Assembly: GCA_963718895.1 (NCBI GenBank)
Contig: CAVRAG010000007.1
Coordinates: 160,001 to 224,000, forward strand
From: an uncultured Nitrososphaerota archaeon
Lineage (GTDB): Archaea; Thermoproteota; Nitrososphaeria; Nitrososphaerales; Gagatemarchaeaceae
Direction of reading: 5' to 3'
Length of the DNA: 64,000 nt
Each line of letters starts with the position of its first letter. The first letter of the stretch is position 1. Positions 1 to 61,914 of the stretch are shown here, piece by piece. The translations under genes were made by a program, and so were the position numbers. The notes beneath the pieces are model-generated. The model was not told the origin of the DNA and did not search any database. It worked only from the letters and a program-made list of their open reading frames with translations.

Positions 1-3000
1 AGAGATAGCCCCAGGCGAAGAGCATGTCGGCATCCCTAGACCACCTACGACCTATGTCGTCCCGGTAGAACATGTTGGGGAGCATGACGTTCTTGACCGA
101 TTGGTAGGCCTGCGCTATCGCCTCCTGCATGGTCATCCCGGATCCGGTGACGACCAGAGAGTAGCCCGACCGGCCTGCCAGCTTCCAGTCGCCCTCTTCC
201 AGCTTCACCTCGCCTATGTGGATCCCATTGAGGCTAGGCTTCCTGAAGAGGATGGTCGCGTCCTCCGAGTATTTGCGGAAGGCCTTCTCGTCCTCGAACG
301 GGAAGGGAGGGACCGCTATGACCACACCCACCTGGTAGCCCTTCTTGCACTTCAGCTGCGTCGGCTTGCCGTGGGCGATATCGCTGAGGAAGGTCCCCCA
401 TTCGCTCAGCACCCCCTCCATGTGGATCGAGACGGTCGGGTACCCAAATCTACAATTCCCAGAGAAGAACGGTTTCCCATGCCTACGCACCAGCATCGTA
501 TGCCAGTCTTCTACCTCGACATCCCAGACCAGGCCGGAGTAGCGTTCCTTTTGAATGACTCTCTTGTCTACGGAGTAGTCCATCTTCTTTTCTCTCACTG
601 AGACTACGTTCATGTCAGAATTCCTGAGGTATCCGCCAATCCCCTGTGTGCCCTTCACCCGGTCGACCCTGATGTTGGCCATTTTTCCACACTTGATCAG
701 CAGCTCTTGGACATCTCCTGCAAGTCGAGGCGAGGTAGTCCCAAAGCTCAACTGACCAGTTCTCCCGTGCCAGTTTCCGTCTCCGAGGGCGTAGCCGTGG
801 AGGAAGTCCATCAAAAGGTCTGGAGAAAATTCCTTGAACCTCGCCGGCACGAACTTGGTCGCAGCATCCATTTGATTGAATCCCAGAGTGTCCATGAAGG
901 CACAGAGCTGCCGGGAACTGAATTGATACGCGCCGTTCTTCTGCTGAGTGAACTTCATCCCAGTCGCTCCCAGAATCATTTCAATCTCATCCCCCCTCGT
1001 TCCATTCGGGCTCTGGGAAATCGAGACAACATGGTCTCCGAGGGACCCTTCGGCGAGATACAGGCCTAGAAACATCATGAACGCGTGGGCTTCGACGGAG
1101 ATGGCCCTGTGGACTATCTCCATCGTCGTTCTATGCTTCCCGAGGTGGTGCGTTTCGATGTACTCAGGGATCTCGATGCTGGCCACGGACGTGCCTTTGA
1201 AAGTTCCTGTCCTGACCACCTTCGTCGCGTGCTTAGGGATCGAGTCTGCTCGGACCAAGCTTAGGCGTCCGGCCCGATCTACGATGACCTGATGCTCCGG
1301 GGTGACGAGCATATCCAGTGCCGTATGAGCTTTGTTCTTCGCGCCTATCCCGATCATCTCGCCGGAGTAGTTTCTCACCATCTTGTTGGTGATTCTCTTC
1401 CAGCAAAGCTCTCGGTCCGCGAGGTTGATTGCGAGAGTTTCATCCCCAATTCGAACCTCGTGGCAGGTCTTCCATCCTTCTCGAGTCAGTACCTCGGTCT
1501 CTTCATCGAAGCAGGTCCACTCCAATGGCCAGACGCCCCTGCCGTTTGCGATGCAGTTGATGTCTATGTAGCCCACGTACTTCGATGCCCTCAGCTGCTG
1601 CCTCATCTTGCCAAGAGTCGCCTCGAAGATGAAGTTCGGCTTTGTCCATAATGTGGATGTGTTGCCGCACCAATAGGGTTTGCCGTTCCTTCGCACGTAC
1701 ATCACGTGATTCTTCACGGTCGCGCAGTAGACGACCCCTGAGTAGTCGACTTCTCTGATGTCTCTTCTATCTAACCAAGAGGTGAGCTTCTTGACTCTTT
1801 CGTGAAGTTCATACTGTGGTCGAGAGGCATCGGCATCGTGATTCCCGATTCTCACCGTCCCCCTGCCCAGACGCGTCTTCACGATTCCGAGTCGACCTAC
1901 CTTCAGGAGAAGTTCTTGAACGTCGTCGACGAGCCTCTTGGAAGATGAGTAGAAGATTCGGTACCCGTTCTTCATCGCAGTTCCATCTCCGAGCGCGTAC
2001 CACTCTAAGAAGATCTGAATCTGACGGGCGCTGAGACCCTTTATGAACGCGGGGATGTACTTCTCGGGTGCCTGGCCGAATTGCCTTAGGAAGGATGCTA
2101 GCTGCTTGTTCGAGCAATTGAAACTGCCACCTGCCTTGGAGAAATTGAACGGGAGATTTTTCAGGAGTGCTTCTATCTTCTCAACCTTTCCAGCTTTCTT
2201 CTGCGCAACCCCAACATGGTAGCTGTCTCCGCGGCTATCGACAAATCCATCGGAGAGCCAGATTCCCATGAACGCGAGCCAAGTGTCCATTGGTATGTCG
2301 ACGGCCGCCGTCTCATGTAGCACGACTTGTCTGCCCTCGTAGTGGGCTAATGCGACCGATGGGAGAACGAAGCTACCTCGCTCATGGCCGATCCATGTGC
2401 CGGTGCGCTTGATTCTCGATTGGGATTGCAAGTCCCTCGCTTTCACGAACTTGAAGTGATCGCGGTGACTCTTCGCGTCTTGTTGAGATTCGACAAACAT
2501 ATTGTGGTCTGGAGTAACCATGATGTCAAGCGTCCTGTTTTGTATCGAGATGAGGCGCTTGTGATGAACAAATGAAACAATCTCGTAAGGTCTTTCGAAT
2601 TCTATCATGCTGCTTATCGGATTCAGCGTGCAGATTTCATGGTCCCGAGTTAGATTCTTGAACAGCGTCCAACCCTTGTCGGTAAGGACCTCCGTCTTGT
2701 CATCGTAGCATCCCATTTCTCCGGTGCTAGGCCCGATGTCGTTCGGGAACAGTCGCTTGTGCTCGAAGTTAATGTTGATGGGCTCCACGAAGTCAGAGCC
2801 GTTGAAGAACGCCCCGACGGCAATCTCGACTCCCTGCGCATACTTCTGTAGGAGGAAGACCTTGATCTTGCTCGACCACTTCTTCTTGTAGTGCTCGAGC
2901 ACCTGTTCTACATCTCTACCGTCCTCCTCCTGGCCCACGAAGAGGAGCTCCTTCTCATTCTGGGCTTTCCCGCTGGGCTTGATCACGTAGCGGTCGGGAT

Positions 3001-3379
3001 TCTGCTTGATGAATGCGACTGCCTCGTCGAAGGAGGTGAAATTCCAACTCGGCAGTATTGGCACCCCAGACTTCCTCAGCTCTTCCTGGCCGAACTCCCT
3101 GTCGTCCTCAAGCTTGTCAGTGTACGCGCTACCTCCCACGACGAACTTCCCCTCAGCCCTAAGCCGCTCTGCGGTCGCGGCGAACCCGATGTCGTCGAAG
3201 ATTATCACGTCCGCCCAGTCCTTCTGTGGTTCCCACTGATCCACCTTCGGCACAAAGCCGTCTCCAACGTCCTTCTCGCTGGCGTCCTGGACGAAGAAGT
3301 TCACCTCGTGGCCCTCCTTCTTCAGCTGCCACGCGAGGTCGACCGAGAGCGCCTCACGCGTTACGAAGAGGAACTTCAA
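1..3379 (-). CDS. PurD-like (phosphoribosylamine--glycine ligase-like) ATP-grasp protein with two inteins; stop codon lies beyond the window edge
   Basis: Hand translation: TTG start at 3379 with GGAGGT upstream, open frame to position 2 (1126 codons). Exteins read MKFLFVTREALSVDLAWQLKKEGHEV...YVIKPSG...FEHKRLFPNDIGPSTGEMG|TSTLW...YIDINCI...PLEWT|CRFGYPT...MFYRDDIG...AWGYL. Spliced length is about 423 aa. Confidence 0.93.
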   Translation of the reverse strand, partial: MKFLFVTREALSVDLAWQLKKEGHEVNFFVQDASEKDVGDGFVPKVDQWEPQKDWADVIIFDDIGFAATAERLRAEGKFVVGGSAYTDKLEDDREFGQEELRKSGVPILPSWNFTSFDEAVAFIKQNPDRYVIKPSGKAQNEKELLFVGQEEDGRDVEQVLEHYKKKWSSKIKVFLLQKYAQGVEIAVGAFFNGSDFVEPININFEHKRLFPNDIGPSTGEMGCYDDKTEVLTDKGWTLFKNLTRDHEICTLNPISSMIEFERPYEIVSFVHHKRLISIQNRTLDIMVTPDHNMFVESQQDAKSHRDHFKFVKARDLQSQSRIKRTGTWIGHERGSFVLPSVALAHYEGRQVVLHETAAVDIPMDTWLAFMGIWLSDGFVDSRGDSYHVGVAQKKAGKVEKIEALLKNLPFNFSKAGGSFNCSNKQLASFLRQFGQAPEKYIPAFIKGLSARQIQIFLEWYALGDGTAMKNGYRIFYSSSKRLVDDVQELLLKVGRLGIVKTRLGRGTVRIGNHDADASRPQYELHERVKKLTSWLDRRDIREVDYSGVVYCATVKNHVMYVRRNGKPYWCGNTSTLWTKPNFIFEATLGKMRQQLRASKYVGYIDINCIANGRGVWPLEWTCFDEETEVLTREGWKTCHEVRIGDETLAINLADRELCWKRITNKMVRNYSGEMIGIGAKNKAHTALDMLVTPEHQVIVDRAGRLSLVRADSIPKHATKVVRTGTFKGTSVASIEIPEYIETHHLGKHRTTMEIVHRAISVEAHAFMMFLGLYLAEGSLGDHVVSISQSPNGTRGDEIEMILGATGMKFTQQKNGAYQFSSRQLCAFMDTLGFNQMDAATKFVPARFKEFSPDLLMDFLHGYALGDGNWHGRTGQLSFGTTSPRLAGDVQELLIKCGKMANIRVDRVKGTQGIGGYLRNSDMNVVSVREKKMDYSVDKRVIQKERYSGLVWDVEVEDWHTMLVRRHGKPFFSGNCRFGYPTVSIHMEGVLSEWGTFLSDIAHGKPTQLKCKKGYQVGVVIAVPPFPFEDEKAFRKYSEDATILFRKPSLNGIHIGEVKLEEGDWKLAGRSGYSLVVTGSGMTMQEAIAQAYQSVKNVMLPNMFYRDDIGRRWSRDADMLFAWGYL
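455..1513 (-). mobile_element. Intein 2 (353 aa) with LAGLIDADG homing endonuclease
   Basis: Block A CFDEETEVLTREGW; block B VTPEHQVIV; endonuclease motifs FLGLYLAEG, KFVP and FLHGYALGDG; C-terminus YSGLVWDVEVEDWHTMLVRRHGKPFFSGN followed by +1 Cys. Confidence 0.95.
1661..2710 (-). mobile_element. Intein 1 (350 aa) with LAGLIDADG homing endonuclease
   Basis: Block A CYDDKTEVLTDKGW; block B VTPDHNMFV; endonuclease motifs FMGIWLSDG, KYIP and FLEWYALGDG; C-terminus YSGVVYCATVKNHVMYVRRNGKPYWCGN followed by +1 Thr. Confidence 0.95.
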
Positions 3380-58870: not shown

Positions 58871-60479
58871 ATGGACGATAATCTTGTAGAGGTGAAGACG
58901 GCCCTGATCAGCGTCGCGGACAAGACGGGGTTGGTCGATTTCGCGCGTGAGCTGACGGCCTTCAAGGTCACTCTGCTCGCCACCGGCGGGACCCACTCGG
59001 CGTTGAAGGAAGCAGGGCTGCCCGTACGGAGCCTCCAGGAGGACATGAACCTGCCCCAGGCTCTCTCCGGCAGGGTGAAGACCCTGCACTCGCCGCTCTT
59101 CGGCGCCATCCTCGCCAAGAGGACCCCCGAGCACCTCGCCGAACTCCGGGCGATGAAGGTCGACCCCATCGACTTGGTCGTCGTCAACTTCTATCCCTTC
59201 GAGAGGGTCGTCAGGGACAGGAGCGCGGACGAGGAGAAGGTCATAGAGAACATCGACATCGGAGGTCCTTCGATGGTCAGGGCCTCCTCGAAGAACTTCA
59301 GGTACGTGACGGTCGTGCCTTCTCCCGCGCTCTACGGATACGTGGTCGAGGAGCTGCGGGCGAACTCGGGGCGGACGACCCTCGCGGCGAGGAGGCGCCT
59401 CGCCCTCGAGGCGTTCTCCATAACCGCGTCCTATGACGCGGCGATTTACAACGGACTCTGGAGGAGGCTGCAGGCCGATGCAGGGCTCCCCGGGAGATAC
59501 CTCCTCTCCGCCTCCAAGTTTCAGGATGCGAGGTACGGGGAGAACCCCGACCAGCGGGCGACGATCTACTCCATCGACGGTGCCCGCGGCATGACGGGAT
59601 GGAAGCAGCTCGCCGGCGAGACGCTCTCTTTCAACAACTACCTCGACATCGGGTCCGCCTACGACATCCTGACGGGGTTCGAGGGGGTCCCGGCAGCGGC
59701 CACGGTCAAGCACGGCAACATCAGCGGCTTCGCTTTCGCCCCGACCGTCTCGGAGGCCTACTCGCTCGCCCACTCGTGCGACCCGGAGGCCGACTTCGGG
59801 GGGACGGTGGTCCTGAACAGGGAGGTCGACCTCGAATGCCGCGACGCTGATCGGGAAGAACGAGGGGTTCAAGGACACGTCCGTGTACACCGAGATTCTG
59901 ATCGCGCCTAAGTTCGGAGAGGAGGCTCTCGAGCGCCTAAGGTCGAAACAGAAGAAGAAGATCAGGATAATCCAGAGCACGACGGGCACGGACTATCCCT
60001 ACGACCTGAAGCTGCTGGAGGGGGCCGTGCTCCTGCAGGAGTCCGTAGACTATCGGGACAAGCTCGATGAGAGCAAGCTCACATTCCCGACGAAGGCTCA
60101 GCCCGAGGAGGCGGTGAGAGCGAAACTCCTCGCGGCCTGGGAGGTCGTAAGGAGGGTCCCCTCCAACGGCATCGTCATCGCCGATGGGAGGTACGACAAC
60201 GGCCTCACGCACTTCTGGACGCTCGGGGTCGCGAGCTTCCGGAAGAGGAACGGGGCCGTGCGGATAGCCCTGGAGAACGCCGGTGAAAGGGCGAGAGGGG
60301 CGGTCTGCGCCTCGGACGGGTTCTTCCCGTTCAGGGACAACATAGACCTGCTGGGGAAGGCGGGGGTCAGGTCCGTGGTGCAGCCAGGCGGTTCAGTCAG
60401 CGACCCTGAGGTCATAGCGGCCGCCGACGAATTCGGGATTAGCATGGGGCTCACCCACGTCCGGGCGTTCAAACACTGA
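58871..60479 (+). CDS. purH: Bifunctional AICAR transformylase/IMP cyclohydrolase (frameshift near 59840)
   Basis: ALISVADK, ATGGT, GRVKTLH, IENIDIGG, RYGENP, SFNNYLD, SDGFFPF, QPGGS, RAFKH. Confidence 0.92.
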
Positions 60480-60513
60480 CGCGGCCGTCGCGCCCGGGAA
60501 CACGGCCGCGTCA
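60477..60513. terminator. Perfect 12-bp inverted repeat spanning the convergent purH/purD junction
   Basis: TGACGCGGCCGT-N13-ACGGCCGCGTCA; the outer ends of the arms are the two stop codons. Confidence 0.45.
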
Positions 60514-61914
60514 CCCGCGTTCGGCATGCCTGAGCTCGTCCATGTGCTCGGCACTCTTCTTGAGGTCGCGGGGGCTCGCTATGTCTCGTCGGCAGCGGAT
60601 CGGCCCTCTGAGGGCGTCGACCCCCGCGACCGAGATTACCCTGGCCTCTTCCACAGATGCCCGAGTCCCCACGACTGCGACGGACCGCGAGCCCCCAAGG
60701 TAGGTGGACGTCCCCTCGACCCTGACGTCCATCGGGTATATCCGCAACCCATCGGTCCCACGCTGGAGGGCGTAGGAGCCGGTCAGGTCAATCCGCTCCT
60801 TCTCCAGAGGGACCGTCTCCGGAATCCCGTAGCCCCTCGGGACAGCGCACGTCACGACCGAGGCCCTCTTCGAGAACCTTATGCCCTTGAGCGAACCCTC
60901 GAGCATCTTGAAGCAGACTTCAACGAAATCGTCCTCGATCGTCGTCAGGACGCTGATCTGCTCGGTGTTGCCTCCCCTGCTGTTCCTCTCCAGCACCTTG
61001 AATCCGTCGCCGGTATGCATGAGCGCGTCGTACAGCACGATGCCACGGAGGCCTGGCTCCGACCCCCTCCCTCTCCACCGCGCGAACGCTCGCGCCTCAG
61101 AAGAGACGACGTGGTCCCACTCCGATGCCCTGAGGAATGGCAGATGGGCTTCGGTACCTCTGTAGCTTCCCATTCCTCCGGTGAGCCGCCCGTGGTCGCC
61201 CTCGAGAGCACGTTTGTAGTCCCTCGTCTGCGGTGCCACGATGAAGTGTCTGCCGTCGCTGAACGCCTGGAAGCTCGACTCCTCGCCCTCGACCTTCTCC
61301 TCCACGACCACCCTGCCTTTCGCAAGCACGTTGCGGAAGAATGCGACCATCCCCTTCTCTGTGGTGAAGTCCTTACCCCAGACCCCTACCCCGGCTCCGC
61401 GGGCGGGAGCGTCAGGCTTGACGACCGGCTCGGCGATCTCTGATGCGAACTTCTTGAACCGGGCAACAGCCGCGCCCTCGCTCCGAAAGGCCTTCAAGTC
61501 AAAGACCGCGTAGCGCGGGTTCGCGTCCTCGAAGGTGTCGTCGAAGAGCAGCCGCTGGTCGGCCTTGCTGCGCTCCACCGCATGTCTCCGGTCGACGCAG
61601 AGCATCGGGACGCCGCTGTCGTGCTCCACGATGTCTCGACCTCCGGCCGTGATGAAGTCCTCCGTATCCGTCAGACCGAAGCTGATCCTGCTCCTGTGCC
61701 TCCGGGCGAAGGCAGCGACCTCGAGTACATCGAGGTCCGGAATCGTCTGATGGACCTTCGCTCTCTCCAGGTCGTACGGGTTGGCCTGGCGTTCGGCCAC
61801 GAAGAACTCGGGACGGTAGTTCGAGCTCCGCGCCAGGGCATCGATCATCGCCGCGGCGCTCAGGCACTTTGAGACGATCAGTATGCCAACCCGGTCCATC
61901 GATGACGCCACCAA
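60511..61914 (-). CDS. purD: Divergent phosphoribosylamine--glycine ligase
   Basis: ERSKA, VVKPD, GAGV, EEKVEGEESS, RDYKRA, TGGMGSY, GYG, GSRS, RRDIA; lies in the pur cluster. Confidence 0.75.
   Translation of the reverse strand: MVASSMDRVGILIVSKCLSAAAMIDALARSSNYRPEFFVAERQANPYDLERAKVHQTIPDLDVLEVAAFARRHRSRISFGLTDTEDFITAGGRDIVEHDSGVPMLCVDRRHAVERSKADQRLLFDDTFEDANPRYAVFDLKAFRSEGAAVARFKKFASEIAEPVVKPDAPARGAGVGVWGKDFTTEKGMVAFFRNVLAKGRVVVEEKVEGEESSFQAFSDGRHFIVAPQTRDYKRALEGDHGRLTGGMGSYRGTEAHLPFLRASEWDHVVSSEARAFARWRGRGSEPGLRGIVLYDALMHTGDGFKVLERNSRGGNTEQISVLTTIEDDFVEVCFKMLEGSLKGIRFSKRASVVTCAVPRGYGIPETVPLEKERIDLTGSYALQRGTDGLRIYPMDVRVEGTSTYLGGSRSVAVVGTRASVEEARVISVAGVDALRGPIRCRRDIASPRDLKKSAEHMDELRHAERG

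Follow-up and report, generated by a model that had tools for sequence, protein, structure and literature searches.

Haloarchaeal MCM helicase genes carry two adjacent inteins, MCM-a and MCM-d, which home independently of each other, and a 'resistant' allele with Pro at position +1 is described for the MCM-d site (PMC10643990, available part). In viruses of bacteria of the candidate phyla radiation (CPR), two viral 'purD' genes have been read as purine synthesis genes, and the word intein is absent from the available part of that paper (PMC12647753). The gene considered here encodes a PurD-like ATP-grasp ligase interrupted by two inteins 49 residues apart, and it lies at the very beginning of a 64,000-nucleotide stretch, hereafter the window, of the genome of an uncultured Nitrososphaerota archaeon of the family Gagatemarchaeaceae (assembly GCA_963718895.1, contig CAVRAG010000007.1, positions 160,001 to 224,000; G000:C7:160001-224000). 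A literature search, with InBase and paper supplements outside its scope, revealed no description of inteins in a PurD-like ligase at these sites. The available part of the main text of an intein census (PMC4760082) contains none of the terms 'phosphoribosyl', 'PurD' and 'Thaumarchaeota', and the available part of a discussion of ATP-grasp proteins of jumbo phages (PMC7824862) does not cover the host family.

Organisation of the Precursor Gene

A listing of open reading frames (ORFs) with open-ended frames allowed indicated that positions 2..3379 of the reverse strand form a single frame of 1126 codons with a TTG start codon (3379-3377). The frame is visible only with this setting, which explains its absence from the ORF track supplied with the window. 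Its stop codon was found at positions 1456-1458 of the locus L003 (G000:C7:158544-161999), which extends to the left of the window; these positions correspond to window positions -1..1, so that the codon straddles the first base of the window. Thus, the protein is complete and the C-extein consists of exactly 151 aa. The sequence-only reading, which was made from the letters of the window, had given this length with an added 'or more', and only the addition falls away. Location of the junction strings divided the precursor into parts of 223 + 350 + 49 + 353 + 151 aa, and the intein boundaries proposed in that reading (2710-1661 and 1513-455) coincide exactly with this mapping. The parts of the gene are as follows (window positions):

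2..3379, reverse strand: complete precursor gene, 1126 codons, TTG start
2711..3379, reverse strand: N-extein, 223 aa; PurD-like N, B and part of the A domain; ends in ...GPSTGEMG
1661..2710, reverse strand: intein 1 (site a), 350 aa; Cys1, block B, two LAGLIDADG motifs, Thr at +1
1514..1660, reverse strand: middle extein, 49 aa (TSTLWTKPN...GVWPLEWT); 81% identity to residues 223-275 of the homologue P0003
455..1513, reverse strand: intein 2 (site b), 353 aa; Cys1, block B, two LAGLIDADG motifs, Cys at +1
2..454, reverse strand: C-extein, 151 aa (CRFGYP... to ...AWGYL); contains GARS_C

The junctions (marked here by ↓) read GPSTGEMG↓CYDDKTEV...PYWCGN↓TSTLW for intein 1 and PLEWT↓CFDEETEV...PFFSGN↓CRFGYP for intein 2. 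Pfam searches with the precursor revealed GARS_A (residues 94-235), GARS_C (1050-1112) and LAGLIDADG_3 in two stretches. Removal of both inteins in silico, which had been proposed as a check of the original prediction, gave a product of 423 aa, colinear with intein-free homologues and 92.4% identical to the intein-free 423-aa protein P0003, with no gaps in either sequence relative to the other; the N-extein alone is 93-94% identical to the N-terminal part of P0002 and P0003. Residues 68-412 of P0003 are, in turn, colinear with PurD of Geobacillus kaustophilus (PDB code 2yrw, E 3e-24), and in this alignment site a corresponds to GPNTGGMG↓A and site b to IEFN↓ARFGDPE, which bears out the equivalence of the interrupted motifs to the GPNTGGMGA loop and the EFNxRFGDPE motif of PurD. 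Both insertions fall in the core that binds nucleotide and metal, site a in the loop GPxTGEMG and site b in the motif LE(W/F)T↓xRFGYP. An open frame of 1126 codons containing two insertions that are precisely absent from 423-aa homologues is far beyond chance. The central claim of the sequence-only reading, an uninterrupted frame in which a PurD-like ATP-grasp protein carries two homing inteins 49 residues apart, was thereby confirmed.

Features of the Two Inteins

The conserved blocks of both inteins were located as follows:

2518-2504, reverse strand: intein 1, block B, VTPDH
2278-2246 and 2008-1982, reverse strand: intein 1, two LAGLIDADG motifs with the endings ...SDG and ...GDG
1708-1661, reverse strand: intein 1, block F/G, ...HVMYVRRNGKPYWCGN
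1306-1292, reverse strand: intein 2, block B, VTPEH
1075-1046 and 802-776, reverse strand: intein 2, two LAGLIDADG motifs with the endings ...AEG and ...GDG
502-455, reverse strand: intein 2, block F/G, ...HTMLVRRHGKPFFSGN

A family alignment was composed of 47 inteins of site a and 12 inteins of site b, drawn from the query and the best 120 homologues of its N-extein. Cys1, the Thr and His of block B, the His of block F and the terminal Asn are kept in 59/59 of these inteins. The +1 residue is uniform within each site: Thr follows every one of the 47 site-a inteins, and Cys every one of the 12 site-b inteins. The acidic residue of the LAGLIDADG motifs is retained in 55/59 (motif 1) and 58/59 (motif 2), and the lengths of 337-356 aa mean that there are no endonuclease-less mini-inteins among the 59.

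The profile PF14528 (LAGLIDADG_3) matched the precursor in two stretches with 59.1 bits against a cut-off of 22.5, and partial matches were found to NCBIfam models of intein-bearing RNA polymerase A'', helicase, PolD, Tes, V-ATPase and GyrA. A search with intein 2 alone against the PDB revealed the V-ATPase inteins 7qsu/7qss (E 4e-8), and the same search with intein 1 alone yielded no match to inteins of solved structure; a profile of five family inteins matched PI-PkoII (2cw7, E 2.4e-7), 7qsu/7qss (E 1.2e-6) and the KlbA mini-intein. Homology between the two inteins extends over the whole sequence and includes the endonuclease domain (29% identity, E 9e-44), and the two are mutual best matches within their own genome (123 bits, vs. 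≤29.8 bits for others). Judged by these signatures, both are full-length class-1 inteins with putative LAGLIDADG homing endonucleases.

Each intein would excise itself post-translationally. An N-S acyl shift at Cys1 would begin the reaction, transesterification to Thr+1 (site a) or Cys+1 (site b) would come next, and cyclisation of the terminal Asn and an acyl shift to the peptide bond would complete it. The expected outcome is a restored ligase and two free endonucleases, which would cut intein-free alleles at the matching site, with the intein being copied in by repair (homing).

Occupancy and Distribution of the Insertion Sites

Searched against longer proteins, the N-extein gave 5271 matches at E ≤ 1e-5. 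The best 120, which originate from Nitrososphaerales/Thaumarchaeota metagenomes, were aligned to P0003 and fall into three length classes of 423-424, ~773-784 and 1124-1130 aa. Together with the query (n = 121), they comprise 65 proteins with no large insertion, 43 with an insertion at site a only, 7 at site b only, 4 at both sites (the query, P0094, P0109 and P0117) and 2 fragments. In the numbering of P0003, site a lies after residue 223 (...TGEMG↓C...CGN↓T...) and site b after residue 272 (...LE(W/F)T↓C...GN↓CRFG...).

A second search used residues 560-990 of the precursor (the 49-aa extein and intein 2) and gave 328 proteins at E ≤ 1e-20; among the 120 listed, 75 have an intein at site b only, 25 at site a only and 6 at both (P0109, P0284, P0094, P0123, P0117 and P0286), and some of the proteins are named from Paceibacterota and Diapherotrites bins. 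The family also contains a site at reference residue 59 (...WAD(I/V)V↓C...GN↓CFDD), which P0337 combines with site b and P0359 with site a. Distant members, with 35-48% identity, are interrupted at 217-219 (GPA↓C...GN↓TGEMG, P0256), 258 (IDLN↓C...GN↓CIA, P0191) and 274 (TPR↓C...GN↓CGYP, P0341), so that the insertion positions found in the 423-aa family are 59, 217-219, 223, 258, 272 and 274; the inteins of the distant relatives P0164 and P0198 end in Gln, not Asn. These further sites and the repeated doubles characterise the family as a multi-site intein host in which the a+b double is recurrent. In public sequence data, inteins at site a and at site b are both frequent and polymorphic, and some relatives already bear the Joint Genome Institute (JGI) label 'phosphoribosylamine-glycine ligase/intein/homing endonuclease'; consequently, the suggestion that the two are uncatalogued insertion sites has largely lost its novelty, by the standard that had been set for it. 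Empty b sites could be scored for the +1 residue in 83 of 109 proteins, with the pattern unmatched in 26, and contain Ser (51), Ala (15), Thr (7), Cys (5) and Gly (5); Ala or Gly at this position could not support splicing.

The search for the gene in 401 species genomes of the class found it in 31, and two more matches (25-27% identity) belong to a different PurD type. Among these 31, 25 genomes (including the unpublished G283 and G327) have an intein-free gene, G299, G184 and G212 have an intein at site a, G262 and G323 at site b, and only G000, the genome of the window, at both. A sample of 31 genomes of the organism's own taxonomic family contained 8 with an uninterrupted gene and 10 with open frames of 778-834 aa, a length that implies one intein each, as well as G000 with an open frame of 1135 aa. 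Within the genus of the organism, the gene is free of inteins in G417 and G421 and contains a single intein in G423; no copy was found in G412 (95% complete, single contig). Such presence/absence polymorphism is the pattern expected of selfish homing elements.

The divergence of the inteins points in the same direction. In three relatives with exteins 92, 91 and 88% identical to those of the query, the site-a inteins are just 65, 71 and 66% identical to intein 1, which is the same range as at 76% extein identity (r = 0.33, 46 pairs). The G+C content at third codon positions (GC3) is 0.64 and 0.68 in the two inteins and 0.80-0.84 in the three extein pieces (0.82 for the exteins); the lower values of the inteins are compatible with mobility and suggestive of it, but not decisive. 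Occupancy of sites a and b looks independent, since 4.3 doubles were expected and 4 were observed (Fisher p = 1). The double allele is thus very probably a chance meeting of two independently spreading selfish elements and no regulatory device.

Several observations weigh against this reading. The poor correlation between extein and intein identity could in part reflect saturation of fast-evolving inteins, and not transfer. The deviation of the intein GC3 is modest, with z of -1.2 and -0.8 relative to a set of 42 long window frames that may include non-genes (mean 0.77, standard deviation 0.11). The occupancy counts span related, non-independent sequences, which makes the comparison of expected and observed doubles a rough check. 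The penultimate residue (block G) is Gly in 58/59 family inteins and Glu in one, in place of the usual His; the absence of the penultimate His lowers splicing efficiency in some inteins, but natural inteins that lack it are known to splice, this His being usual and not obligatory. The matches to the splicing-domain models remain below the curated cut-offs (Intein_splicing, in intein 1, 24.2 vs. 35.8; Hint_2, in intein 2, 27.4 vs. 28.4; TIGR01445 18.5 vs. 24.5), and both splicing and endonuclease cleavage by the two inteins are activities that we infer from conserved residues and motifs; for cleavage of empty alleles, the presence/absence polymorphism and the separate intein lineages of the two sites lend indirect support.

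Nature of the Host Enzyme

AlphaFold 2 modelling of P0003 gave a structure with a predicted local distance difference test (pLDDT) score of 95.4 and a predicted template modelling (pTM) score of 0.92. The best 15 PDB folds for this model are all glycinamide ribonucleotide (GAR) synthetases (TM 0.73-0.80, E 1e-32 to 2e-26), followed by biotin carboxylases (5e-21). The fold suggests a putative carboxylate-amine ligase, in which an ATP-dependent acyl phosphate would be attacked by an amine. The scores of the PurD model TIGR00877 are low for both the precursor (103.3 bits) and the intein-free P0003 (107.3 bits) against a cut-off of 288, which was passed by 14/14 control genomes. A comparison of LEWT↓(S/C)RFGYP with IEFN-ARFGDPE of PurD, which contains the ATP-grasp E-x-N metal motif and RFGDPE, shows that Glu is kept, Asn is replaced by Thr and Asp by Tyr, and Thr272 is invariant in the family alignment A2.

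A reading in which this gene is the real GAR synthetase of the organism, with purine synthesis hanging on two splicing events, is improbable. It agrees with the PurD-like fold and motifs, with annotation pipelines, which call relatives 'phosphoribosylamine--glycine ligase', and with the lack of any PurD above the TIGR00877 cut-off in the 31 sampled genomes of the own family. A different candidate for that role was found in the window itself, next to a purH-like sequence:

60511-61914, reverse strand: second PurD-like gene, 467 aa, directly adjoining purH

This second gene matches TIGR00877 over the full model length with 161 bits (cut-off 288) and contains ERNSRGGNTE in place of the PurD motif EFNxRFGDPE. 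Its type was found at E ≤ 1e-40 in 3/401 genomes of the class and in 14 of the 31 sampled family genomes, and its orthologue in G412 (C1:757-758 kb) clusters with purM and purF (746-752 kb). The second gene is probably the divergent real PurD of the lineage. The adjoining purH-like sequence is split into two overlapping frames, 58871-59911 and 59883-60479 of the forward strand (346 and 198 aa), which could be explained by a frameshift, by an error of assembly or by a purH that is truly split.

Other features of the intein host also argue against a place in the purine pathway. The four near-complete relatives G323, G341, G299 and G262 (95-100% complete) have the intein-host type as their sole PurD-like type; searches for purM in these four genomes gave no gene (best 29 bits), and searches for purF gave amidotransferase-domain matches only. 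No pur genes were found around the host gene in 13 loci (12 of Nitrososphaeria and its own), and nothing in these loci is conserved beyond the genus. In 80 cellular loci of many phyla, only scattered housekeeping neighbours were found (SET domain, hydrolase, cysteine desulfurase-like, MiaB-like and tRNA-binding proteins), and none of the cellular loci offered a conserved neighbour that would point to a substrate.

The gene is also patchy, with its 31 occurrences in 401 class genomes and further ones in DPANN archaea, CPR bacteria and phage contigs. In total, 589 cellular relatives were found, and the best 80 listed have 57-72% identity across archaeal bins (Micrarchaeota, Woesearchaeota, Aenigmatarchaeota, Nanoarchaeota, Methanosarcinales, Thermoplasmatota) and bacterial ones (Saccharibacteria, Parcubacteria, Planctomycetota, Gemmatimonadota, Elusimicrobia, Bdellovibrionales and others); some of the cross-domain relatives (L036-L115) lie on contigs of 200-890 kb, and a Halorussus protein has 51% identity to the host ligase. 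Such high identity across domains, combined with the patchy distribution, indicates recent horizontal transfer or mis-binning. Taken together, these data make it very probable that the host is an accessory, horizontally mobile orphan paralogue of PurD and not the GAR synthetase of the purine pathway. The designation 'GAR-synthetase-like' in the sequence-only reading therefore holds for the fold but not for the pathway, given the 103-107 bits against 288 and the retention of the gene in genomes lacking purM, and routine PurD annotations of the family are probably wrong.

Viral Relatives of the Ligase and of the Inteins

A scan of IMG/VR with the host-family alignment revealed 186 viral relatives, the best 80 of which are similar over the full length with 29-49% identity. 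The neighbours in these 80 loci include a protein of ~1000 aa with an SLT domain directly upstream (18 loci), GH108 lysozyme (16), holin (13) and primase-polymerase (10); these lysis, virion and primase-polymerase neighbours indicate that the contigs are phage-like and give no clue to the substrate. The start of the phage PurD-like gene often lies inside a large gene upstream, 4 bp short of the end of that gene (L116-L195; e.g., L168:2993-6004, L146:4346-6004, L190:3635-6004); the large gene encodes either the SLT-transglycosylase protein (in those 18 loci) or one of two uncharacterised proteins (~550 and ~790 aa). In these contigs, an ATP-grasp ligase stands within a virion/lysis module. PHROGs contained no family for the extein, and INPHARED contained one full-length relative with 32% identity (MW202796.1), the other 26 of 27 records being of the PurD type with 22-27% identity.

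The corresponding IMG/VR scan with the intein alignment gave 408 viral relatives, and the best 80 cover residues 1-350 with 28-43% identity. The 28 of these that were examined reside in many different host proteins, and Pfam searches with 10 hosts revealed a minor tail protein, a glycosyltransferase, a terminase and an epimerase/dehydratase. Two viral PurD-like proteins are occupied at the same sites as the query: L196 at site a (...GPNTGEMG↓C...WCGN↓T..., exteins 31% and 29% identical to P0003) and L199 at site b (...LEFT↓C...GN↓CRFG..., N-extein 35% identical).

A quick IQ-TREE phylogeny was built from 48 inteins: the complete set of 12 from site b, a subset of 14 from the 47 of site a, and 22 of the 28 viral inteins that had been examined. 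The cellular inteins group by site, in clades supported by 99 (site a) and 100 (site b) in the Shimodaira–Hasegawa-like approximate likelihood ratio test (SH-aLRT); the L196 intein is sister to the site-a clade and the L199 intein to the site-b clade (SH-aLRT 93 each), and viral inteins of other hosts fall within the same larger group (98). Site-specific clades with viral sisters point to an own intein lineage for each site, common to viral and cellular copies. On the other side, the value of 93 for the virus-cell sister branches is under the 95 level in a tree from a quick search only, and IMG/VR contigs may include proviruses or wrong calls.

The possibility that intein 2 is a recent intragenic duplicate of intein 1 was considered and found no support: the two are 29% identical, viral inteins show up to 43% identity to intein 1, and viral inteins from other hosts branch among the lineages of inteins 1 and 2. 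As judged by this tree, the two lineages are cousins inside a virus-rich intein family and not recent duplicates of each other.

Three viral inteins near the site-b lineage (L197:2959-4506, L198:2125-4488 and L206:2110-4500) have hosts without a Pfam extein domain, and their junctions read ...IDIC↓C..GN↓SRAPHP, ...IDYC↓C..GN↓SRWFYPG and ...STVR↓C..GN↓CGLPVP. These hosts may be very divergent ATP-grasp proteins invaded at the equivalent site.

A broader scenario can be put forward tentatively. As an orphan, non-purine ligase that moves among viruses, DPANN archaea, CPR bacteria and Nitrososphaerales, the host might serve as a bridge by which virus-borne inteins cross between viral and cellular genomes during infection, with at least six sites and an own lineage for each.

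Regulation, Assembly and Genome Context

The proposal that two required splicing events act as a post-translational switch presumes that the inteins owe their retention to conditional splicing, which would gate the enzyme, e.g., through the redox state of Cys1 and Cys+1 of intein 2. Both inteins interrupt active-site motifs, so that the unspliced precursor should be inactive, and intein 2 indeed has Cys at positions 1 and +1; in some inteins, two such Cys residues can act as a redox trap. For other archaeal inteins, splicing that depends on conditions has been documented (PMC11409957, available part). The distribution speaks for a different history: the inteins are dispensable, being absent from 65/120 of the nearest homologues and from 25/31 species genomes with the gene, the occupancy of one site looks independent of the other, the endonuclease motifs are conserved, as expected under selfish spread, and the host gene is itself accessory. 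The switch, consequently, finds no support, the polymorphism being as expected for selfish homing elements, and we consider it unlikely, slightly more so than a role of the gene in purine synthesis.

An assembly chimera of strains with site a only and site b only, joined within the 147 bp between the insertions, is very unlikely. The assembly is of the metagenome type (80.5% complete, 5.41% contamination), single-intein alleles are far commoner than doubles, and a Logan contig of run X2 begins at window position 1508, 6 nt off junction b. Parts of the stretch were found in seven metagenome runs (soil or other), and in run X1 a Logan contig of 406 nt corresponds to window positions 1415-1820 with 0 differences, spanning intein 2, the middle extein and intein 1 and reaching 99 nt into intein 2 and 160 nt into intein 1. 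This bridging of both inteins argues against a chimera, with the reservation that X1 may be the source sample of the window, in which case it adds a second assembly of one sample and no independent one; moreover, the same a+b arrangement occurs in six other clusters at 90% identity from different sources. Decay into a pseudogene with splicing-dead inteins, to which the missing penultimate His and the accessory nature of the gene might point, is just as improbable, given the intact 1126-codon frame, the presence and invariance in 59 inteins of all catalytic splicing residues, and an extein GC3 of 0.82 with 92% identity to intein-free homologues, which indicate no relaxation.

The neighbours of the host gene encode GatB, HhH-GPD glycosylase, rhodanese, MoaC, Mrp/NUBPL, CofE, CofD and an ABC ATPase. 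A provirus setting for the gene in the window was rejected, since these flanks consist of chromosomal housekeeping genes. The genome as a whole is rich in inteins, with 21 LAGLIDADG_3 matches, and seven of its long frames were scanned:

C8:19252-22746 (L010), C3:9117-12563 (L012), C4:1-2698 (L013), C7:380474-383884 (L014), C7:599180-602824 (L015), C8:141419-144655 (L017), C8:660710-663922 (L023)

The intein hosts in these frames are a T2SSE-type ATPase, NAD-dependent epimerase/dehydratase, UDP-glucose dehydrogenase, NAD synthase, MCM, PolB and a NuoB-like protein (Oxidored_q6). Several of them are metabolic enzymes, which are unusual as intein hosts, and thus a metabolic host is not exceptional for this organism.

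Comparison with Known Systems

The locus contains inteins of the ordinary selfish kind, set in a host family that is new and has several insertion sites, and it shows no new principle. It documents an intein host beyond the set of replication, repair and nucleotide-reduction proteins, and the natural states of the gene (empty, a only, b only, a+b, and the residue-59 site with a or b) provide a system for studying the interaction of neighbouring inteins; the host gene is probably dispensable and hence easy to manipulate. Because viral copies are occupied at the same two sites, the exchange of inteins between viruses and cells can be tested here on a concrete example. The PurD-annotated host family, for its part, persists in genomes without the purine pathway.

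The host shares with PurD/GAR synthetase (TIGR00877; PDB codes 2yrw, 2ys6, 1gso) a four-domain fold and the motifs GPxTGxMG and xRFGxP, but, unlike PurD, it is low-scoring, has E-x-T and RFGYP, is unlinked to pur genes and is also found in phage contigs, next to genes for lysis and virion proteins. The 'purD' genes of CPR viruses, as far as the available part of their description goes, are likewise PurD-annotated genes in viruses of small-genome hosts.

As in the archaeal class-1 LAGLIDADG inteins, such as PI-PkoII of the Thermococcus kodakarensis DNA polymerase and the V-ATPase inteins, a HINT domain is split by a two-motif endonuclease; Cys1, TxxH of block B, the terminal Asn and a nucleophile at +1 are present, and a conserved nucleotide-binding motif is invaded. 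Unlike in those inteins, the host is a metabolic-type ATP-grasp ligase and the penultimate residue is Gly, not His.

The pair also resembles MCM-a and MCM-d, as presented in the available part of their description: there, too, two inteins lie close together in one gene, and single-intein alleles are common alongside doubles. In contrast to MCM, the present host is probably non-essential and patchy, its two inteins are full-length homologues of each other (29% identity), and further sites exist at reference positions 59, 217-219, 258 and 274. Alleles that would block splicing by their +1 residue have counterparts in both systems, with Pro at MCM-d and Ala (15) or Gly (5) at the 83 scorable empty b sites of the ligase family.

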